Assembly (NCBI GenBank): GCA_964495685.1
Contig: CAZBVQ010000001.1
Coordinates: forward strand, 105,521-169,520
Length of the DNA: 64,000 nucleotides
From: an uncultured Candidatus Saccharibacteria bacterium
GTDB taxonomy: Bacteria > Patescibacteriota > Minisyncoccia > Phycocordibacterales > PALSA-1337
Direction of reading: 5' to 3'
The stretch's first letter is position 1, and the number at the start of each line of letters is the position of its first letter. The position numbers were made by a program, and so were the translations under genes. Positions 1-10,099 of the stretch are shown one piece after another. The notes beneath the pieces were generated by a model. The model did not search any database and was not told the DNA's origin. It saw only the letters and a list, made by a program, of their open reading frames with translations.

Positions 1-1232
1 ATATTCAGCAGGGAGTCTCAATCTCAATATTCGCAAAGAAAGAAGGCAAAAAGAAAGTCGGATTGGCAGATGTGTACCACTTCGAATTATGGGGCAAGCG
101 GGAAGATAAGTTTGCGGCTCTCAATGCGAGCACTATCGAAAATGTAAAGTGGAATAAATTGAACTATTCCGAGCCATATTATTTCTTTGTACCTAAAGAC
201 TTTGGCGACGAGGAGGAATATAAGAAGGGATTTTCTGTGACAGAAATATTTGGTGAATACAATTCAGGCATTCAGACCAAACGCGACGATCTTACGATAA
301 GTTTTGATAGGGGAAGCATTGAAGCAGTGGCTACAGATATGGAGAATCTTCCTGTCGACGAGATACGAAAGAAATATAATCTTCCTGAGGATGGTCGAGA
401 CTGGAAGATAGAGTGGGCGAAAAAAGATGTTACGGCTGGATATAAAATCGAAAATATTCAATACCGTCCTTTTGACACACGATACACTCTCTATACTGGG
501 CGTTCGAAAGGTTTTCTTGCGTATCCTCGAGAGAAGACAAACAAGAATATTGTTGGTAAAGACAATTTATCATTGCTGACAAGTCGCATGATCCCGCCTT
601 CCCAGGATTTTGATAGAAGTTTGGTCACACGAAATATATCTGATATACATGCGGCCAGTGACCAGACCTACGTTTTTCCATTGTATCTATATGCTGATGA
701 TGGATCGAAAGTATCGAATCTTAAGAAAGAAATTGTCGAAAAAATTAAGAATATAGTCGGAGATATTTCTCCGGAGGATATTTTCGATTACATATACGCA
801 ATGTCGTACTCGCCAACCTATAGGCAAAAATATAAGGAATTTTTAAGGATAGATTTTCCTCGGATACCATACCCAAAAGACGCTCAACAGTTTAAATCTC
901 TTGTTTCACGAGGTCGGGAACTTCGAAACCTACATTTGTTTGAGTCAAAGAATATCAATATTCTAACCACCTACCCCGCTAGCGGTTCTAATACTGTTGA
1001 GGCTGTTTCATATAAAAACGGCAATGTTTTCATTAACATTGACCAATATTTCGGGAATGTTCCTGCTACCGTTTGGGATTTTCACATTGGAGGATATATT
1101 CCTGCACAGAAGTGGCTCAAAGACCGAAGAGGACACAAACTATCTGACGATGAGATCTCGCACTACCAAAAAATTATCGTTGCTATTAGCGAAACTGCGC
1201 GGATAATGGAAGAAATTGGGAAAATTATCTAG
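1..1232 (+). CDS. Type IIG / Type ISP restriction-modification enzyme, C-terminal region (5'-partial; reading frame is open to window start)
   Basis: No in-frame stop from position 3; the ORF-track start at 63 is TTG. The YRPFD..RY..Y block and the W-DFHIGGYIP...W.K.R C-terminal block are typical of Eco57I/MmeI/LlaGI-type fused methyltransferase-specificity proteins. Confidence 0.55.
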   Translation, partial: IQQGVSISIFAKKEGKKKVGLADVYHFELWGKREDKFAALNASTIENVKWNKLNYSEPYYFFVPKDFGDEEEYKKGFSVTEIFGEYNSGIQTKRDDLTISFDRGSIEAVATDMENLPVDEIRKKYNLPEDGRDWKIEWAKKDVTAGYKIENIQYRPFDTRYTLYTGRSKGFLAYPREKTNKNIVGKDNLSLLTSRMIPPSQDFDRSLVTRNISDIHAASDQTYVFPLYLYADDGSKVSNLKKEIVEKIKNIVGDISPEDIFDYIYAMSYSPTYRQKYKEFLRIDFPRIPYPKDAQQFKSLVSRGRELRNLHLFESKNINILTTYPASGSNTVEAVSYKNGNVFINIDQYFGNVPATVWDFHIGGYIPAQKWLKDRRGHKLSDDEISHYQKIIVAISETARIMEEIGKII

Positions 1233-3065
1233 CTAGAATTCTCCGAGAATCTTTAGCAGTTTCTCCTCGTGTTCATTTATAGCCTTGGCGTCAGGTTTGA
1301 TCGAATGAATGTCTATGATTGGATTGTCTTTGAAGTAAAGTACCTCGTTGCTCTGGAAGATGCCGCTCCAGCCCTTCTTTTTACGGTCATCAGTGTTCGT
1401 CGCTACTCTGATTGCCTCATTATATTGATCTATATCGAGTTTTATCATCTCCTTTCTCTCGGATACGTGACCAGTCAAATCTGTTTCATACGTTCTGAAC
1501 AGTTTTTTGAGCAGTCCTTCGAAAGCTAAAAGTTTAGAATAGCCATCGATGAGCATCTCACGTCTTTCGAGAAATATCTTTTCCATCGTCGGGTCGATAA
1601 ATTTGAGAAATGTTTTTCCGTCCTCCTTAAACTCCTTTAAAAGCATCTTTCCTTCAAAGACGCCGGAAAGGATAGTAAGCGACATATTGTATATGCTGAA
1701 GAAATTCGGCTTGCCCTGATTATTCAGATTGCCGATGATAAGCTCGCGATCCAAGTGTTCACCTTTATGTTCCGGATCATCATCGGCATAAACGATGCCG
1801 AGATTGGCGTCGTAACGGTCAGTCCTTTCCTTGAAGTCCTTCACAAATTCGTAGTTGCCGTTGAAGTTGTACAGGCTTTCGCCGGTGATGACGATCCCGT
1901 CGAATTTTTCAAAAGCCTTCTTTTCATCGAGTTCTCCTTTTTCAGTTATATCGAGGCCGACCCTCTCCATTACTTCTTTAGCAGCCGCGAATTCGCTGTC
2001 ATAGAGGCGCTTGCTGTATAGCTTCTCTTTCATCGTCTCCGCCTCTGTATGGTTTCGTATCTGAAGTTCTTCCGCTTCGATGTGTTTGCGGAGTATCGAA
2101 TTTGCCTCTGTTTTGATAGCAATCCATCTATTGAATAACTCAGCATCACTGCTTACTGCAAGTGGTGTGTATGCTTCCTCAAGTCCGTCATCAAGCCATT
2201 TGAGGCATCCTTCCTTGAGCATGACCTGTATAGTTGTATTGTGTTCAACGGCATACTTCTCCATAGCCTTTGTAACATCGTCACAGGTGCCGGTATCCTC
2301 ATCGTCGGCTTCCTGATTTTTGGCCATAGCTTTTTCAGTAACTTCGATACCTTTCATCTTCAGAAAATATCGAGCTACTTCGACAAGAGGAATACAAGCA
2401 AAATAGTGGAAAAGCTGATATTCCTTGGCAAATTTGTTATAGCTTTGTTCCGCAACGAGAGATGCTAGCTTTCCCTTTGCCTCTGGAGAAAATTCAGATT
2501 TTCCGTTATACAGATTGGCAATGATTTCTTCTTGATCAAGATACTGATGATCTGTCTCCACGTCGGGGTAGAGTTCGTTCATACGCTTTCTGTCGTCCGG
2601 ATTCAGTTTTTCAAAGGCTAATTGATAAATGGCATAGTCGAAATCGAGCCCTTCCTTCAGCTTTACTTCTTTCTGCTTAGCTGCGATCCTTACGGCTTCG
2701 TCGAGCTCGACCATCTTCATTTTCTCCAAGGTATCAATGCATCTGCCCATCCTGCGATATGAGGGGTAGTAGAGTAGATTTAGAATGACAGGAAGTTGTG
2801 CCAAATATGCAACTTTGGCATCTTTGTATATTAGTTCGACCTCGATCTCCATTCTTCCCGTGTGCTTCCAGGCTTCATTTAGCCGATTCCACTCTCGAGC
2901 TTCGCTGTTATCCTTGGCTTTCCAGTTTTCCAACGCATCCTTATCAGCGGGAGTCAAAATATCCTTGCCGGTTTTCATCTTTTGCACGTCGTTTTGAATG
3001 AGGAGAATGAATTTCTCCCGTGCCGTTAGGTTTCCAGTATGTAGCATTCGCGTTAAATCTCTCAT
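1233..3065 (-). CDS. hypothetical protein, 610 aa, no recognisable motifs (no P-loop, no HTH seen); last gene of the minus-strand methyltransferase operon
   Basis: Long uninterrupted ORF with protein-like composition, tightly packed against flanking genes. Confidence 0.5.
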   Translation of the reverse strand: MRDLTRMLHTGNLTAREKFILLIQNDVQKMKTGKDILTPADKDALENWKAKDNSEAREWNRLNEAWKHTGRMEIEVELIYKDAKVAYLAQLPVILNLLYYPSYRRMGRCIDTLEKMKMVELDEAVRIAAKQKEVKLKEGLDFDYAIYQLAFEKLNPDDRKRMNELYPDVETDHQYLDQEEIIANLYNGKSEFSPEAKGKLASLVAEQSYNKFAKEYQLFHYFACIPLVEVARYFLKMKGIEVTEKAMAKNQEADDEDTGTCDDVTKAMEKYAVEHNTTIQVMLKEGCLKWLDDGLEEAYTPLAVSSDAELFNRWIAIKTEANSILRKHIEAEELQIRNHTEAETMKEKLYSKRLYDSEFAAAKEVMERVGLDITEKGELDEKKAFEKFDGIVITGESLYNFNGNYEFVKDFKERTDRYDANLGIVYADDDPEHKGEHLDRELIIGNLNNQGKPNFFSIYNMSLTILSGVFEGKMLLKEFKEDGKTFLKFIDPTMEKIFLERREMLIDGYSKLLAFEGLLKKLFRTYETDLTGHVSERKEMIKLDIDQYNEAIRVATNTDDRKKKGWSGIFQSNEVLYFKDNPIIDIHSIKPDAKAINEHEEKLLKILGEF

Positions 3066-3066
3066 G

Positions 3067-3309
3067 TTATCTTCTTTTCTTTAGGGTTTGTTCAAGGAAT
3101 TCGACCCGTTCCTTGAGATCAGCCACTTCGATCACTTTTGAAAGTGCCAAAGCAACACGCGAGACAGTCATGGCCCTCCTTAGCGTAGTTTTGCCCTGTG
3201 ACACGTCCTTAAGGGTGGTCGAGAGAATCTCGCCGGCTTCCTCGATGCTCAATATCTTCTTGTTTTCTTGGATATTCATATGTTTGTTACATTCCTTCGA
3301 CGATCTCAA
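3067..3309 (-). CDS. hypothetical small protein (80 aa), predicted helical/coiled
   Basis: ORF is packed 1 nt from the 610-aa gene and overlaps the upstream gene by 23 nt (operon-like). Confidence 0.35.
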   Translation of the reverse strand: MRSSKECNKHMNIQENKKILSIEEAGEILSTTLKDVSQGKTTLRRAMTVSRVALALSKVIEVADLKERVEFLEQTLKKRR

Positions 3310-3676
3310 CCCATGCTTTTACTTCAGCTGCCTTGCCGGACTTTGTTGCCTCTCTGTAGAGGGCGGAAATGACGTTCGGAGTGAGCTTTTTGGCCCAATA
3401 GCTGATGCTTTTCATGAGACCACCGTCCTCATCGATCTTTTTGTTCCATGCTGATAGCGTGCCGGGGTCCTTGATACCGAATCTCTTAGCAAATTCTGTT
3501 TGGTTTTTGATGTCGAGAAGCGATATGGCAATCTCATCATCAATGCCAAATTTCTCGATAACGTGCTTTGGCTGCCCACGGAGTATCGAGGGCATGGATC
3601 GCCAAAGAACGTATGACTCGAATTCCTGTTTCTTGTATACATTCAGTGATTTGGAATGTTCGGCATCGATTTCCAT
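3287..3676 (-). CDS. small HTH-like protein (129 aa), possibly phage terminase-small-subunit-like
   Basis: Segment EFAKRFGIKDPGTLSAWNKK resembles an HTH recognition helix; located directly downstream of the methyltransferases. Confidence 0.35.
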   Translation of the reverse strand: MEIDAEHSKSLNVYKKQEFESYVLWRSMPSILRGQPKHVIEKFGIDDEIAISLLDIKNQTEFAKRFGIKDPGTLSAWNKKIDEDGGLMKSISYWAKKLTPNVISALYREATKSGKAAEVKAWVEIVEGM

Positions 3677-3682
3677 ATGCGT

Positions 3683-4450
3683 TTAATCATGGTTAATCAG
3701 TTCGGCTTTTTTCTTGGTCAATTTCTCCCATCTCTCGACTATGGTCTTTGCATACGCCTCATCCAGCTCAACCATGAGACACTTTCGACCTAAGTGTTCG
3801 CAGGCAATCAAAGTTGATCCTGAACCGCCGAATGGATCGAGTACGATATCCCCGGGCTTTGTCGAGTGGTATATGAGGCGACGCAGAAGGGCTGGCGGTT
3901 TCATCGTCGGATGCAGCTTGCTTCTTGATGGTTTGGGGTAGAAAAGAGCCGTTTTGTCTTTGTTGCCGAAATATTGGTGTTTGCCGTACCAGCCGTACAC
4001 AATGAGCTCGTGTTGAGGATGGTAGTCCTTGCGGCCGACCACGAGGTGATTCTTTATCCATATGAGGAGTGCTGACTTCGTATAGCCGGTATCGTGTAGG
4101 GCATTCAGAAGTTCACGGAGTTTAGTGTCTCCGTTGAAGATGTAGAAAGCATTTTTCTCGGCCATATGGGAGTTGACTGCCTCGAGCCACTTATTTGAGA
4201 GATCGTAATAGTCGACATTTACTGCGTCTCCTTTGATCGCCTTAAATTCCACTCCATTTCCGCCTTTATGGATCGTGTCGAGGAATTCCTGCTTGCCCTC
4301 GACGTAACCAACGCCGTAGGGCGGGTCGGTCAAGACGAGATCGATCTTGTCGCCGCCAATGAGAAGATCCACGTCCTCTTTTTTCGTCGCATCTCCCAGA
4401 AGAAGACGATGTTCCCCGAGCTTCCAGATTTTAGTTGAGCTTTTTGGCAT
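3683..4450 (-). CDS. DNA methyltransferase (N6-adenine/N4-cytosine, beta-class, N6_N4_Mtase family)
   Basis: DPPY motif (LVLTDPPYGVGY) precedes the AdoMet motif I (LDPFGGSGST). The ORF track extends to 4507; the start used here is the internal Met (MPKSS..) to limit overlap with the upstream gene. Confidence 0.8.
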   Translation of the reverse strand: MPKSSTKIWKLGEHRLLLGDATKKEDVDLLIGGDKIDLVLTDPPYGVGYVEGKQEFLDTIHKGGNGVEFKAIKGDAVNVDYYDLSNKWLEAVNSHMAEKNAFYIFNGDTKLRELLNALHDTGYTKSALLIWIKNHLVVGRKDYHPQHELIVYGWYGKHQYFGNKDKTALFYPKPSRSKLHPTMKPPALLRRLIYHSTKPGDIVLDPFGGSGSTLIACEHLGRKCLMVELDEAYAKTIVERWEKLTKKKAELINHD

Positions 4451-5690
4451 GGTTTTGAGTGAAGTGCTCGTAACGCCGAATAATGAGATCGCAGAATGTG
4501 GGGTCAAGTTCGACCAAGTATGCCCGGCGTTTCAGTTGCTCTGCGGCGATCAGGGTACTTCCGCTTCCGCCGAAAAGATCGAGCACGATTTCTCCCGGTG
4601 CGCTACAGCGTTTCATCGGTTTTTCGTTCAATGTTATCGGTTTCTGTGTTGGGTGCTCGTAATCTGCGGTATTGTCGCGCTTCACTAGCCAGAGCTGGAC
4701 GATTGACATAAGGTCGTCATACGCGCCGATCGAGTTAACTTCTTTGTTTAGGATTTCTGATAGATTTTTTACCGACGGATTCAAGATAGGACTGCCGCGT
4801 GTGCCGTACACGCATGGTTCTATGACCTTGTTGAAGGCGACTTGCGGTGTTGGATCAAAGTTATTCTTGACCCAGAAGCAGATACGCCTGTTTACAATGC
4901 CGTTTTTCTCATACAGATTTTGGAGAAGCCAGACGTATTTCTCATCGCACCAGTAGAAGATGTGGATATCTGGCTTACATCCTGAAAGCGCATTCTTGAG
5001 CGATGTCTCGATGGATTTCTCGTATTCACCAGTGCTTTTGCTGTCATTTACAATCTTGTCAGTATATTTGCCGTTCGTACCTATGCCTTTGCGATAATCG
5101 AGGCCGATATTGTACGGGGGATCGCAGTAAATCATGCTCGCTTTGTCCGTACCCATCAGTTTCTGAATTGTCTCTGGATTTAGCGAGTCGCCGCATATGA
5201 GCTTATGGTCTCCAAGCTCATATATGTCACCGGGCTTGGTTTCTGGTACACTGATTTTTTCAAGCTCCTCCTTTACGTTGAATCCGTCATCCTGAATGTC
5301 GAGAACGTCGTCAAAGAACCCATTCAGTTCATCCGGTGTGAATCCAACGTCCATGAGCATGTTCGAATCGAAAAGCTTCAAAAGTTCTTCGTCCCAGCTT
5401 CCAAGGTTCTTGTTGAGACGAAGATTAAGCTCCTTTTCGCGCTCAATCTCCGGAATATTGAGATATACAACCGGCACTTCTGTGAATCCGAGTGTTGTGG
5501 CGACTTTGAGGCGAAGATGACCACCAATCACCACATTTTTTCGCTCTGGAGAACCATTTACGATGAGGGGATCGCAGAGGCCGAAGCGTTTGATGCTCTC
5601 GCTCATGTCGTAAAGCACTTTGTCGTCCCATTTCCTAGGATTATAGGCCGAGGGCTTCAGTTCTTTGATTTGTACGTGGTCGATTTTCAT
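4431..5690 (-). CDS. ParB-like nuclease domain fused to DNA methyltransferase (ParB-MTase)
   Basis: N-terminus: ELKPSAYNPRKWDD...GGHLRL (ParB/Srx fold). C-terminus: CDPPYN and LDLFGGSGST (DPPY and motif I). This is a common phage/plasmid methylase architecture. Confidence 0.8.
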   Translation of the reverse strand: MKIDHVQIKELKPSAYNPRKWDDKVLYDMSESIKRFGLCDPLIVNGSPERKNVVIGGHLRLKVATTLGFTEVPVVYLNIPEIEREKELNLRLNKNLGSWDEELLKLFDSNMLMDVGFTPDELNGFFDDVLDIQDDGFNVKEELEKISVPETKPGDIYELGDHKLICGDSLNPETIQKLMGTDKASMIYCDPPYNIGLDYRKGIGTNGKYTDKIVNDSKSTGEYEKSIETSLKNALSGCKPDIHIFYWCDEKYVWLLQNLYEKNGIVNRRICFWVKNNFDPTPQVAFNKVIEPCVYGTRGSPILNPSVKNLSEILNKEVNSIGAYDDLMSIVQLWLVKRDNTADYEHPTQKPITLNEKPMKRCSAPGEIVLDLFGGSGSTLIAAEQLKRRAYLVELDPTFCDLIIRRYEHFTQNHAKKLN

Positions 5691-5757: not shown

Positions 5758-6297
5758 TTAAAAACGCGCAGGCATCCTCCTCTTGAAAGTAAGGTGCAGG
5801 CGCTTGAGCTGGATCTCGGCAACAGGCTTGCTCACCTTGAAGATTCTAGCGACATCCTCGATATACGGCGACGGTGTTACCTTATACAGCTCGCGAACCA
5901 TTATTTCGGGCATGAGTATGTCGCCTGCAAATTCATCGCAAAGATCTTCGTCCCAACCGTGCACATTTTTCGAGCAGAACACCGTTTTTGGCTGATTGGG
6001 GAAGAGAACTATATGCGCCAGCTCATGCGCGGCGGAGAAACGCTGCCTCTCGGTGCATTCTTGGCCATTAACCACGACAATCCATCCGATATTCATGTCT
6101 TTGGTGGAGAAAGCCGACACGCCTTGCGGGAAAAGCTCGCTATTCGACTTTACGACGCAGTGTACATCGCCGAGATATGACTCGATGACATCCCTGATTG
6201 GAATGGGAGTCTTGAAATAGCCGGAGTCCTGTGCCTCCTTCAGAATCTCATTTACCTTGTTTTTGGCTTTGACTCGCCACTCGTCTGGGATCCGCAT
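5758..6297 (-). CDS. ImmA/IrrE family metallo-endopeptidase
   Basis: HEXXH signature AAHELAHIVLF; the gene lies directly downstream of an XRE repressor gene. Confidence 0.75.
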   Translation of the reverse strand: MRIPDEWRVKAKNKVNEILKEAQDSGYFKTPIPIRDVIESYLGDVHCVVKSNSELFPQGVSAFSTKDMNIGWIVVVNGQECTERQRFSAAHELAHIVLFPNQPKTVFCSKNVHGWDEDLCDEFAGDILMPEIMVRELYKVTPSPYIEDVARIFKVSKPVAEIQLKRLHLTFKRRMPARF

Positions 6298-6302
6298 ATT
6301 GG

Positions 6303-6653
6303 TTACTTAGTTTTTAAATGTTGTTTGATGTGTTCGATATATGCCTCGACCGCTTGTATCTGATTGTCGTTCAGATCATACTTGGCCCGAAGGAAGGTGG
6401 GTGTACTTGCTTTGGCGATATAATCCTCTTGTGTGATGCCTGCCTTTGTGAGGATTAACTCAACCGGCTCCTTCAATCCGTCCGCAATCTGTCGAAGTGT
6501 CTTGACTGAAGGGGAATCATCCAAGTACTCACCGCTTTCAAGCCTCGAAATATATCCTCTTGTGAGCTTCGATTCCTTGGCAAGTTTCTCCTGGGTCAAA
6601 CCCTTATCTTCACGCAATGACTTTATGACCGTGTGCAATTTCATGTTCTTCAA
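6303..6653 (-). CDS. XRE-family helix-turn-helix transcriptional regulator (ImmR-like repressor)
   Basis: LTQEKLAKESKLTRGYISRLESGE is a classic Cro/C1 HTH; pairs with the ImmA gene. Confidence 0.85.
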   Translation of the reverse strand: MKNMKLHTVIKSLREDKGLTQEKLAKESKLTRGYISRLESGEYLDDSPSVKTLRQIADGLKEPVELILTKAGITQEDYIAKASTPTFLRAKYDLNDNQIQAVEAYIEHIKQHLKTK

Positions 6654-7112
6654 TTCAACTTATGCTTCTAATGCTTCGACTGGCTTAATGATACCATGCA
6701 TGACTACAAGGTTACAATAGTATACAGTGTGGATATTGAATTAGGACACGGAAATAGCCACCTGTAAATACTTGGCTACGAAAAGCCAATCAAGTCAAGA
6801 ACGAATCGATAGAGATATGTATTTATGGCGATGTATAGCCATTCTTTGAACTTCATGAGTTTGAGATGGGTCTAAACTATTGGGTTTGTTTGGCTTTTGA
6901 CCCAAGTGAGACATGATGCGGATCCATCAAGGACTGTCTCAATTGTCTCATTTTGAGGAAACTAGCCCCTATGCGGATGCCTCACTACACTATTGGTGTG
7001 ATTGCCAGAAAACCCTTATACTGTCTTATACTACACAGTCCGAGACGTTAGTGGGGCACAACCAATACGCATGTTAATGTTAGATAGTTGTGATAATATC
7101 TTGAGATCAAAC

Positions 7113-8098: not shown

Positions 8099-8860
8099 TT
8101 ACTTTATCCCAGTCCACATGTTTTCAAATAGATTTAGGTAAGCTTTGGTAAGCGCTTTATTTTTTATGCATATAGCAGTGACTGGTGAATACTCAGTTGA
8201 GTAAATTATGTTCAGTACGGTGTCTATCTCTGGGTAGATGTGTAGGCCAGCAGGGTTGGGGTTATTAGACTCAACGTATTTTATTTCATACATATTTATG
8301 TTAGATACGTCATGGTCGATTGATTCCTTCTGGGAAGAGTAGCCGAGCATCTTGATGTGTACATTTTTCTTACGAACAACCTTATGATACTTGTCCCAAA
8401 TTGGTCGCATGGTTTGTTTCATGAAATCTTCTCCACCTGTACCCAAAACATATTTTGTACTTCGTGCGGGCATCGAGTTGATAAGTGTTGAGAGCAGTCT
8501 GAGGTACTCATCGTTGCCTTCGTGCACAGAAATCTCCCGCAATTCCCGATTGGTTGTGATTTGTTGATAATAACGAAGTAAATTTTCAGCGCTTTCTTGT
8601 TTTTCCTTGAGCTCAGTAATCAAAATGTTCGGGGTAATAGATTCAAAGATCATTTTACCCTTCATATTTTTGGCAGATATAAGTTTTTTGTCCACGAGGT
8701 GGTCAAGGGCGGTATATACAATGTTTCGGTGGAGGTTTGTTTTTGCGATTATGTTTCCAGCGGCGGAGGCGCCCTGTTGTAGCAAAACTTGGTAGACGAG
8801 GGCCTCGTTTTCTGAAAAACCCAATTTTCTTAAATCGAATAAATCGTTGTTTATAGGCAT
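8099..8860 (-). CDS. TrmB-family transcriptional regulator (copy 1)
   Basis: N-terminal winged HTH LGFSENEALVYQVLLQ...NIVYTALDHLVDKKLI plus a C-terminal TrmB-like domain; divergent to a binding-protein gene. Confidence 0.7.
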   Translation of the reverse strand: MPINNDLFDLRKLGFSENEALVYQVLLQQGASAAGNIIAKTNLHRNIVYTALDHLVDKKLISAKNMKGKMIFESITPNILITELKEKQESAENLLRYYQQITTNRELREISVHEGNDEYLRLLSTLINSMPARSTKYVLGTGGEDFMKQTMRPIWDKYHKVVRKKNVHIKMLGYSSQKESIDHDVSNINMYEIKYVESNNPNPAGLHIYPEIDTVLNIIYSTEYSPVTAICIKNKALTKAYLNLFENMWTGIK

Positions 8861-8896
8861 ATTTTATGTATTTTAGATAGTTATCACCTAAAATAG

Positions 8897-8924
8897 TTGA
8901 CAACATATATAATTATGCTATACT
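8897..8924 (+). promoter_or_regulatory. sigma70-like promoter for binding-protein gene 1 (TTGACA-16 nt-TATACT)
   Basis: Hexamers read directly: TTGACA at 8897-8902 and TATACT at 8919-8924. Confidence 0.5.
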
Positions 8925-8965
8925 GTAACTGCTAAGTCAAATATCAGCTGTTAATAACATATATT

Positions 8966-10099
8966 ATGAAAAAAATTATTATCCCGATAGTTATTCTTCT
9001 TCTTGTTGTGGTCATTGTCGGCTATTACTCATTAGTTTCTAATAAAACAGATACGCAGGAACCGATTGTTATTGGATACATCGGACCTCTTTCTGGTCCC
9101 TCTGCAGTTTTGGGGATGGACGCTGTTAAAGCAGTCCAGATTGCCGTTGACGAAGCAAACGTCAAAGGAGGTGTTAATGGCAGGGAACTCAAGATGGTTT
9201 TCCAAGACGATCAGTACCTAACAAAAAATACGGTTACTGCCTATCGAAAGATGGTTGACACCGACGGTGCCAAGATTGTTTTAGTTGCCAACTTTGGCGG
9301 GGTTCTCGCCTTGAAGGATGCGGCAGTGAAAGACGGTGTTATTATAATTGATCCACTCGACTGTAATGCCCGAGTTGCTGATTCTAGTAAAAATCTGTTT
9401 TGCATCGCTACCGAAACAGAGTCGATTGGTACGTCTCTTGCACACAAATTGGTTTCTCAAGGAAAATTGAAGGCAGGAATCATGTATTCAACTAAAGACG
9501 AGTTTATGTCATTGGTTAGTGATGCTTTCCGCAACACGTTTGCGAAAGCTGGTGGCGTAGCCATTGTTGAGTCATTCAATTATGAGGATAAAGACTTCAA
9601 GACTCAACTCACAAAGATTAAATCAGAAAATCCTGATGCATTGGTTCTCCTAGGACACGATGAAACAGGTATAATTATGAAACAGGCACGCGATCTTGGA
9701 CTCAAAGCACCCTTCATGACAACAGGTACAATCACAAGCCCTGGGGCACAAGAAGCTGCGCGTGGATATGCCGAAGGTACACTATTTGCATTTTGGGATG
9801 CTAGTTCGGACAACCTAGGAGCACAATCACTGACTAGTACATTTACCAAATTAGTTGGTCGCCCGCCAATATTTCCTCTTACGACTCATCCTGCATACGA
9901 CGCGGTAACCGTTCTTACGACTCAGGTTTTGCCTGGAATCAATGGAGATATTACTGCCGAAAAGATAAGGGCGGGACTTCTGTCGGTCAAAGGATACAAG
10001 GGTGTAACGGGAACGATTACTATCGACAGCAATGGGGCGGCTCCAATACAAGAGAGTGTGTATAAGCTCGTGAACGGTGCTCCAGTTAAGGCGGAGTAG
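8966..10099 (+). CDS. periplasmic substrate-binding protein, LivJ/LivK-like (Peripla_BP_6), orphan copy 1
   Basis: Signal/TM N-terminus followed by IVIGYIGPLSGP...GVNGRELKMVFQDDQY, typical of branched-chain amino acid binding proteins. Confidence 0.8.
   Translation: MKKIIIPIVILLLVVVIVGYYSLVSNKTDTQEPIVIGYIGPLSGPSAVLGMDAVKAVQIAVDEANVKGGVNGRELKMVFQDDQYLTKNTVTAYRKMVDTDGAKIVLVANFGGVLALKDAAVKDGVIIIDPLDCNARVADSSKNLFCIATETESIGTSLAHKLVSQGKLKAGIMYSTKDEFMSLVSDAFRNTFAKAGGVAIVESFNYEDKDFKTQLTKIKSENPDALVLLGHDETGIIMKQARDLGLKAPFMTTGTITSPGAQEAARGYAEGTLFAFWDASSDNLGAQSLTSTFTKLVGRPPIFPLTTHPAYDAVTVLTTQVLPGINGDITAEKIRAGLLSVKGYKGVTGTITIDSNGAAPIQESVYKLVNGAPVKAE

Follow-up and report, generated by a model that had tools for sequence, protein, structure and literature searches.

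Near the beginning of the window, by which we mean the whole 64-kb stretch of DNA that was analyzed, three open reading frames occupy the minus strand at 1233–3065, 3067–3309, and 3287–3676. The original prediction had placed them correctly in coordinates and strand. Its 80-aa middle frame (3067–3309, TTG start) is, according to homologues and gene calls, a 70-aa gene that starts at ATG 3279 and therefore does not overlap with its 129-aa neighbor. The three genes (p610, p70, and p129) and the features surrounding them are as follows.

63–1232, plus strand: C-terminal part (389 aa) of a Type IIG/ISP restriction-modification enzyme that is truncated at the window edge (PF18135 Type_ISP_C, 2.9e-82; PADLOC REase_MTase_IIG, 2.6e-95)
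1233–3065, minus strand: p610, 610 aa, last gene of the operon, an orphan
3067–3279, minus strand: p70, 70 aa, with its start set by homologue starts and gene calls
3287–3676, minus strand: p129, 129 aa, homologue of viral-contig genes in the TerS (small terminase) position, with a probable HTH
3683–4507, minus strand: N6/N4 DNA methyltransferase, MT2 (PF01555, 4.1e-31)
4431–5690, minus strand: ParB_N-fused N6/N4 DNA methyltransferase (ParB-MTase), first gene of the five-gene operon (PF02195 and PF01555)
5758–6297, minus strand: ImmA/IrrE-type M78 metallopeptidase, predicted regulatory switch (PF06114, 2.4e-11; PADLOC capP, 5.9e-16)
6303–6653, minus strand: XRE-family HTH repressor, predicted regulatory switch (PF01381, 7.6e-14; PADLOC capH, 6.4e-10)
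6654–7060, minus strand: upstream control region with TGAGACA repeats and a GTGCCCC box

ParB-MTase, MT2, p129, p70, and p610 form a tightly packed operon, in which spacers of 6, 7, and 1 nt separate MT2 from p129, p129 from p70, and p70 from p610, respectively. The start of MT2 is ambiguous (TTG 4507 or a later ATG near 4450). As predicted, p610 is the final gene of the methyltransferase operon and borders directly on the Type IIG gene, which runs convergently: the two stop codons touch with 0 nt between them (TAG followed by CTA, 1230–1235). The gene call for the Type IIG enzyme on the source contig is 1077 aa long, and a true start about 47 codons later is suggested, which would give a protein of about 1030 aa. 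The XRE repressor and the ImmA-like protease precede the operon, and this placement of an XRE HTH protein and an M78 metallopeptidase directly upstream of a putatively controlled operon resembles the CapH/CapP and ImmR/ImmA pairs. Upstream of the repressor, TGAGACA occurs in two direct copies (6950–6944 and 6941–6935) and one inverted copy (6913–6907), and the GTGCCCC box lies at 7059–7053. A comparable repeat and box architecture is found upstream of the operon in several other copies of the island described below; a promoter and terminator scan gave no enrichment over shuffled sequences.

The three frames are confirmed as real genes under strong purifying selection. In a comparison with a relative at the same chromosomal site, p129 has a dN/dS of 0.013, p70 of 0.03, and p610 of 0.04; the values come from a pair of recombinase-less copies sharing that one site, with synonymous sites saturated.

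The order of the five operon genes is kept in about 25 Parcubacteria/Patescibacteria loci, within a backbone that runs XRE repressor, ImmA-like protease, ParB-MTase, MTase, p129, p70, and p610. In most loci the identity to the window is 76–84% for ParB-MTase (most window-type loci with a full gene), 68–83% for the second methyltransferase, 75–87% for p129, 57–70% for p70, and 44–68% for p610. Two divergent loci, L022 and L027, retain approximately 48% (ParB-MTase), 48% (MTase), and 64% (p129), and MT2, which is 70–76% identical in most island copies, falls to 47–48% in L022, L027, and the likewise divergent L040. Some copies have a divergent XRE/M78 pair that belongs to another sequence type. 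At the DNA level, homology between copies begins about 90–150 nt upstream of XRE and ends within the last 160 nt or so of p610, in the comparison of L003 with L037 exactly at the stop codon. These comparisons place the three genes, with good support, at the promoter-distal end of an invariant island backbone. The original prediction had seen them as candidate defense or anti-defense cargo embedded between a restriction enzyme and methyltransferases; the comparison reverses these roles, as they belong to the most conserved syntenic part and the Type IIG gene is the variable cargo.

The Type IIG gene occupies, as accessory cargo, a hotspot bounded by p610 on one side and, in about half of the copies, by a recombinase on the other. 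It follows p610 in the window locus and in L041, and a full-length homologue among the related loci was found only in L041 and L040. Elsewhere the hotspot holds GmrSD and a methyltransferase (L003), Mrr, PIF1, a Type IIG enzyme, and OLD (L040), diversity-generating retroelement (DGR) cassettes (L001, L034, L035, and L042), an IS (L036), or PemK (L006). The copy in L042 comes from IMG/VR and has no capsid genes. About 11 of about 22 non-redundant loci encode, on the same strand and 0.2–8.4 kb downstream of p610, a cognate large serine recombinase with 57–64% identity between copies; the Resolvase, Recombinase, and Zn_ribbon_recom domains were recognized in L001, L003, L012, L014, L022, L026, L034, L035, L036, and L040. 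No recombinase lies within 10 kb of the window copy, nor anywhere in the window. Structural (capsid, portal, tail) or lysis genes were not seen in any annotated island copy. A search for att sites by direct repeats returned chance-level repeats only, and the adjacency of island copies to tRNA genes is not consistent.

The last gene of the backbone encodes an acidic protein (pI 5.2) that is mostly helical. The expectation that p610 would carry no recognizable motif held, with no match in Pfam, PHROGs, NCBIfam, or PADLOC. Its full-length homologues number more than 250, in Patescibacteria in every case where the host is named, and only 233 representatives occur among 1.84 billion proteins. The AF2 model (pLDDT 83.9) is almost entirely helical and has no fold match in PDB or BFVD. 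Its sequence has no P-loop or nuclease signature, GxxxxGK[ST] being absent, and no wHTH match. Against terminase families there were 0 matches, p610 having neither the Walker A/B ATPase nor the RNase H-like nuclease of a large terminase (TerL), and alignment to the TerL of the sister island L048 by hhalign gave E = 0.39. Homology to any phage or satellite protein was not detected, and the p610 profile gave no match in a motif-limited scan of IMG/VR. Candidate PD-(D/E)xK, HEPN Rx4-6H, and HD motifs picked out by eye were rejected because their residues are not conserved. Sequence inspection indicates that a conserved acidic loop (approximately residues 420–440) is missing from a subfamily of about 495 aa, whose alignment is too divergent for scanning viral contigs. 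Paralogy with the 610-aa frame of L030, the 367-aa frame of L028, the 674-aa frame of L043, or the L048 TerL was likewise discarded, as was a role as DGR target, the VR being located in a separate gene of about 300 aa. p610 is a large, acidic, helical protein, and apparently not an enzyme.

Its partner p70 is basic and helical, and adjoins the p610 homologue upstream in every window-type locus whose sequence extends there. Its homology is to zinc-ribbon proteins of the DUF5763 family, in their C-terminal half (DUF5763 C-terminus vs p70 of L008, E = 2.6e-5); the N-terminus of DUF5763 has a weak resemblance to a primase zinc finger (E = 0.0017). As a small basic helical protein, p70 may serve as an adaptor. 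The pair of p70 domain and p610 also occurs in two other small elements of satellite-like or plasmid-like gene content. It is accompanied in L030 by a PrimPol and a serine recombinase, and in L028, a 10.2-kb contig with a 55-bp terminal overlap, by a DnaG-type primase and a tyrosine recombinase.

For p129, 237 full-length homologues were found. The earlier suspicion that it resembles a small terminase is supported, because homologues lie directly upstream of TerL in viral contigs. The closest is a 153-aa gene in contig L043, 50–55% identical over its full length, that overlaps the start of TerL (phrog_2, 1e-29) in a sequence that also encodes a major head protein. In L044 a 148-aa homologue (32% identity) sits one ORF upstream of a TerL that was identified by tblastn against an annotated TerL (2e-50). 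Apart from HTH_28, which appears below threshold in 42 of 48 homologues, nothing in Pfam, NCBIfam, or PHROG matched p129 at E < 0.01, and the TerS family phrog_2538 was matched by five of the 48, all at E ≥ 0.12. Foldseek against PDB gave a best E of 1.6, and the PDB sequence profile search gave 0 matches. Since no curated TerS family matches, the TerS identity of p129 derives from position and from homology to unannotated phage genes, and it is the homologues rather than p129 itself that stand directly upstream of terL in phage genomes.

The methyltransferases lead to the same phage context. ParB-MTase homologues (46–56% identity) were found in about 20 IMG/VR contigs, 14–15 of which encode TerL 0.4–1.9 kb downstream of the methyltransferases; homologues of MT2 in phage contigs are 47–54% identical. 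The sister island L048 is ordered ParB-MTase, MTase, a 122-aa gene, TerL, cargo, and cognate recombinase. Because the related phages and L048 both present ParB-MTase, MTase, a small gene, and then TerL, p70 and p610 can be assigned to the TerL slot. In the phage module (IMG/VR L045, L054, and L063) the order ParB-MTase/MTase/TerS/TerL and the homologous methyltransferases are shared with the island, whereas the island has p70 and p610 in place of TerL, with no similarity to it at the profile level, and portal or capsid genes are absent downstream of them. The statement that a packaging module is unlikely here, made in view of the missing ATPase motifs, was therefore misleading: the operon is syntenic with such a module of related phages.

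The architecture, that is, gene order, conservation, phage synteny, cargo boundary, and purifying selection, is well supported. Our preferred explanation, with a probability of roughly 0.45, is a phage-derived, satellite-like, integrative island, found only in Parcubacteria-type Patescibacteria, in which p129, p70, and p610 act on phage packaging, presumably as a complex. Release of the XRE/ImmA switch would allow the operon to be expressed, the methyltransferases would modify DNA, and the TerS-like p129 together with p70-p610 would either capture the machinery with which an infecting phage packages its DNA or block it. Such action would spread the island where the recombinase is present, and would protect the cell where the recombinase is absent, as in the window copy.

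Known systems offer partial likenesses. With SaPI/PICI and PICMI satellites, as they are generally understood, the island shares a size of about 8–16 kb, a repressor switch (here the candidate XRE and M78 pair directly upstream), in about half of the copies an integrase at one end, its own TerS relative, accessory or defense genes at the end, and possibly the protection of the host through interference with phage packaging. Judged by gene content, p129 would be the packaging-redirection gene of an element from which capsid, tail, and lysis genes are absent. In contrast to these satellites, the island belongs to Patescibacteria, its integrase is a large serine recombinase that is missing in half of the copies, two phage-type methyltransferases are part of its backbone, and p70 and p610 do not resemble CpmA/B, Ppi, Rpp, Sid, or Psu. 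Most known phage satellites have a replication module; the window-type backbone has neither a replicase nor a pri-rep module, and a PrimPol or DnaG-type primase occurs only in the divergent L030 and L028 elements. SCC elements are similarly large-serine-recombinase islands without transfer or capsid genes, in which conserved genes of initially unknown function lie beside the recombinase and the variable cargo includes restriction-modification systems. However, the conserved genes of SCC are of helicase/primase type, and those found here are methyltransferases, a TerS relative, and two orphans, in another host and at other insertion sites. Searches of the literature found neither the element nor DUF5763 described, nor any satellite of Patescibacteria.

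Among the alternatives, an unlikely one, which is also the closest to the idea behind the original prediction, is that the five-gene operon is a methylation-linked defense or addiction system, in which the methyltransferases mark self DNA, p129, p70, and p610 are sensor or effector, and XRE/M78 act as CapH/CapP-like inducible regulators. The operon always adjoins a defense-rich hotspot, and strong purifying selection on recombinase-less, vertically inherited copies would suit such a system. In PADLOC-DB 2.0, the matches of the regulators to capP (5.9e-16) and capH (6.4e-10) speak for this explanation; the regulators also match RmrA, and the methyltransferases (MTase_II) and the Type IIG enzyme have matches too. 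None was obtained for p610, p70, or p129, which speaks against it. The lack of an NTPase or nuclease motif in p610 and the apparent absence of its acidic loop from the shorter subfamily also argue against it, and the methyltransferases are highly conserved (mostly 76–84%) rather than diversified as is usual for restriction-modification specificities. Moreover, the p70-domain and p610 pair in L028 has no adjacent methyltransferase, and the phage counterparts of the methyltransferase pair and of p129 sit in a packaging-module context.

Somewhat less likely still is a role of p129, p70, and p610 in the replication or maintenance of the excised circular island, with the DNA-binding subunit recognizing an origin and p610 organizing host replication proteins. 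The model for this proposal is the conserved replication genes beside the ccr recombinases of staphylococcal SCC. In its favor, the pair lies one gene from PrimPol (L030) or the DnaG-type primase (L028) and directly adjoins a serine recombinase in L022, L030, and L038; the weak primase zinc finger resemblance of DUF5763 and the iteron-like TGAGACA repeats that several copies have 5′ of the operon point the same way. Genes that served mobility alone should, however, decay after loss of the recombinase, and the recombinase-less window lineage keeps all three at a dN/dS at or below 0.04. An acidic p610 that has no NTPase motif or wHTH match fits this role poorly, and the TerS homology and TerL-slot synteny favor packaging.

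It is highly improbable that p610 is an anti-sigma-like regulatory sensor that sequesters the HTH protein p129 and thereby controls expression of the adjacent cargo. Residues 37–62 of p610 do weakly match DUF4880 (FecR anti-sigma N-terminal) in 26 of 68 homologues (best E = 7e-4), but these matches are short and below threshold, the cargo differs in every copy and is mostly on the opposite strand, and in phage the TerS position is held by a gene homologous to p129 over its full length. A decaying prophage remnant whose three frames have no current function would account for the phage-derived methyltransferases, TerS-like gene, and XRE/ImmA pair and for the absence of capsid genes and of an integrase in the window, but is already contradicted, and hardly tenable, given a gene set intact in dozens of lineages and dN/dS of 0.01–0.04 at saturated synonymous sites.

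Returning to the packaging explanation, a bolder and more doubtful form of it is that p70-p610 represents a new phage-parasitizing or anti-phage module, in which a non-ATPase helical protein and its adaptor replace TerL beside a TerS relative and, in phages of Patescibacteria, capture the packaging motor or block it. The island would then be the first CPR phage-satellite family, partly domesticated as host defense.

A large part of bacterial diversity belongs to Patescibacteria, yet very little is known about their mobile elements or their interactions with phages. The island family is widespread in Parcubacteria and carries a hotspot of defense genes (Type IIG, GmrSD, Mrr, OLD, and retroelements), and p610, one of its three strongly conserved proteins, sits exactly at the place of the phage packaging motor. 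The locus also illustrates that neighboring defense genes can mislead on function, as here the gene beside them is the platform and not the payload. If the reading as a satellite, or as interference with packaging, is true, the island would offer a testable entry to the conflict between phage, satellite, and host in ultra-small symbionts, as well as a new protein family acting on terminases.

The window is part of a 522-kb contig from a Patescibacteria assembly, and the three uncharacterised ORFs of the original prediction, here p610, p70, and p129, are indeed present on its minus strand in the following arrangement:

63-1232, C-terminus of a Type IIG/ISP enzyme, convergent to the p610 operon
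1233-3065, minus strand, p610 (610 aa)
3067-3309, minus strand, ORF of p70 (80 aa as longest ORF)
3287-3676, minus strand, p129 (129 aa)
3683-4507, minus strand, N6/N4 methyltransferase, upstream of p129
4431-5690, minus strand, ParB_N-fused N6/N4 methyltransferase (ParB-MTase), upstream of the second methyltransferase (MTase)
5758-6297, minus strand, M78/ImmA-type peptidase, upstream of both methyltransferases
6303-6653, minus strand, XRE HTH protein, upstream of the M78 peptidase

According to its homologues and to gene calls, p70 starts at ATG 3279, which gives 70 aa and spacers of 6, 7, and 1 nt (MTase-p129, p129-p70, and p70-p610, respectively). The stop codons of p610 and the Type IIG gene directly adjoin. 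As longest ORF (from TTG 4507) the second MTase overlaps the ParB-MTase by 77 nt (4431-4507); a later start is called in the source contig and in relatives (255-262 aa, overlap 20-40 nt).

The window proteins were compared by tblastn with 40 related loci (L handles), about 25 of which have the order ParB-MTase, MTase, p129, p70, p610 in common. In most loci the identity to the window is 76-84% for ParB-MTase, 68-83% for MTase, 75-87% for p129, 57-70% for p70, and 44-68% for p610; L022 and L027 are divergent (ParB-MTase and MTase ~48% each, p129 ~64%). The operon is preceded by an XRE/M78 pair that is either co-directional, as in the window, or divergent and of a different sequence type. DNA homology among the copies sets in ~90-150 nt upstream of XRE and stops within the last 160 nt of p610, between L003 and L037 exactly at its stop codon. 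The genes after p610 vary from copy to copy: Type IIG in the window and L041; GmrSD and an EcoRI-type MTase in L003; Mrr, DUF2779, a PIF1-type helicase, Type IIG, and an OLD-family nuclease in L040; complete diversity-generating retroelement (DGR) cassettes in L001, L034, L035, and L042; an IS transposase in L036; and a PemK toxin in L006. Judged by sequence comparison, p129, p70, and p610 are thus backbone of the island and not the cargo for which they had been taken, as their order is kept in ~25 loci and the variable genes come after p610.

In about 11 of ~22 non-redundant loci the block is closed by a cognate large serine recombinase, encoded on the strand of p610 0.2-8.4 kb downstream (57-64% identity between copies). 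No recombinase was found within 10 kb of the window copy or elsewhere in the 64-kb window. Where DGR cassettes directly follow p610, as in several copies, they comprise an RT, bAvd, and a 126-129-nt TR/VR pair of 78-88% identity (L034, 13564-13689/14104-14229; L035, 13385-13513/13904-14032). The VR lies at the 3' end of a separate ~300-aa gene, and p610 was rejected as DGR target.

Homologues of p129 were found in IMG/VR viral contigs. The homologue of L043 (39 kb) has 153 aa and is 50-55% identical along its full length; its gene overlaps the beginning of the large terminase gene (TerL; phrog_2, 1e-29), with a major head protein downstream (phrog_9953, 1.4e-43). A 148-aa homologue in L044 precedes TerL (tblastn 2e-50 to annotated terminases) at a distance of one small ORF. 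These positions bear out the likeness of p129 to small terminase subunits (TerS) that had been remarked upon earlier. Furthermore, ParB-MTase homologues (46-56% identity) occur in ~20 viral contigs, usually with the second MTase (47-54%) after them, and in 14-15 of these TerL follows 0.4-1.9 kb beyond the MTases. In a sister island, L048, the ParB-MTase and MTase genes are followed by a 122-aa gene and a genuine TerL (8e-37), then by cargo on the minus strand and the cognate serine recombinase. From the gene order in the phage contigs and L048 it therefore follows that p70 and p610 occupy exactly the place of TerL. Profile comparison showed no relation of p610 to TerL, to other neighbours, or to a 674-aa ORF downstream of TerL in L043, which is unannotated and possibly a portal.

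Capsid, portal, tail, and lysis genes were absent from the annotated island copies. The architecture is very probably (roughly 85%) that of an island of phage origin that combines a repressor/protease switch, MTases of phage type, a relative of TerS, and a cargo hotspot, often with a serine recombinase, but without TerL or virion genes. Phage satellites of PICI/PICMI-like type, or domesticated derivatives of them, are built in this way. Assignment to the PICI family proper would be premature, as a replication module is absent and the window copy is devoid of an integrase.

Several further contexts contain more divergent homologues of p610, with 24-44% identity. L030 combines a PrimPol/PriCT replicase, a DUF5763 zinc-ribbon protein, and a p610-like gene with a different large serine recombinase, beyond which host genes begin. 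L028 (1-10212) carries genes for an HTH_17 protein, a Fic protein, a DUF5763-like and a p610-like protein, an orphan 367-aa ORF, a DnaG-type primase, and a tyrosine recombinase. The 55-bp terminal overlap of this 10.2-kb contig suggests a circular molecule, probably a plasmid-like or P4-sized element; it also encodes a Thr-rich membrane protein and is binned, probably wrongly, with a Planctomycetia MAG. In L038 a 73-aa gene precedes a p610-like gene of 496 aa, and immediately thereafter comes a serine recombinase, directly downstream of which lies a group I intron match (RF00028, 83 bits; 3719-3963, minus strand). The full five-gene operon with a ~495-aa p610 is found in L040 and L042. Since p70 is homologous to the C-terminal half of DUF5763 proteins, the constant unit consists of a DNA-binding element (HTH protein or zinc ribbon), the p70 domain, and p610.

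The chromosomal sites of the island vary between genomes; one or other flank is common to L036, L037, and L003, and L041 occupies the site of the window copy, so that the island is inherited vertically over long periods as well. L041 and the window copy, both with Type IIG cargo and without recombinase, were compared for selection. Identity is 98% for p129, 94% for p70, and 86% for p610, and dN/dS is 0.013, 0.03, and 0.04, respectively, with synonymous sites saturated (dS>1) and values similar to those of flanking host ABC-transporter genes. All three genes are thus functional in a copy that appears to be immobile and is passed on vertically. Such constraint speaks against a remnant in decay, and equally against a role confined to excision or transfer.

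For p70-p610 we tentatively infer, rather than observe, a function in packaging interference, a possible but doubtful assignment proposed because of the position in the TerL slot, the tight spacing to the TerS-like gene (which suggests translational coupling), and retention without a recombinase. By binding TerS or TerL, the two proteins would redirect the packaging of phage DNA or jam it; this would spread a mobile island and, in an immobile one, serve as an anti-phage interference module. Among the alternatives, a methylation-linked defence or addiction system would fit regulators resembling CapH/CapP, but an effector motif is absent and the L028 pair has no adjacent MTase. Primases adjoin the pair in L028 and L030, as expected of a replication or maintenance module of the excised island, whereas purifying selection in immobile copies speaks against it. 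An anti-sigma-like regulator draws on weak matches only.

Upstream of XRE (minus-strand reading), TGAGACA occurs twice directly and once inverted at 6907-6950, and a conserved GTGCCCC box lies at 7053-7059. The same TGAGACA cluster is found 200-300 nt upstream of XRE in L003, L012, and L021, which together with L037 have a conserved ~95-nt box; these elements could be operators, iterons, or a pac-like site. The island is flanked on both sides by ABC-transporter genes and repeated pairs of TrmB-regulator and Peripla_BP_6 (Liv-type solute-binding protein) genes (window ~8099-10099 and beyond; 1-5000 and 16690-21833 of L005, the source-contig region), a paralogue array unusual for a small genome.

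The 64-kb window (1-64000) contains no tRNA genes (ARAGORN) and no Rfam families at or above gathering score. About 1.9 kb left of its position 1, the Type IIG gene is closely preceded by a strong LOOT RNA match (RF03000; L005 14974-15088, minus strand; 81.6 bits, gathering score 46.4). That gene spans L005 11834-15067, with only its last 389 codons (63-1232) in the window. For the called ORF (1077 aa) the true start is probably ~47 codons further in; the LOOT match overlaps the beginning of the ORF, and the alignment with the homologues of L041 (1027 aa) and L040 begins only at residue 44. Further strong LOOT matches lie in L012 (15990-16107, 77.2 bits) and L034 (16936-17055, 90.7 bits, between a 326-aa gene and the serine recombinase), so that three island copies carry one in the cargo region, on the cargo strand. 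LOOT is an orphan motif that is not known from outside metagenomes, so these matches would place it in a Patescibacteria island.

The searchable literature yielded no account of the element, of what DUF5763 does, or of Patescibacteria harbouring phage satellites. Islands of satellite type and hotspots of defence genes are known kinds; new here are the variant in an unexplored phylum and the orphan protein pair at the terminase position.
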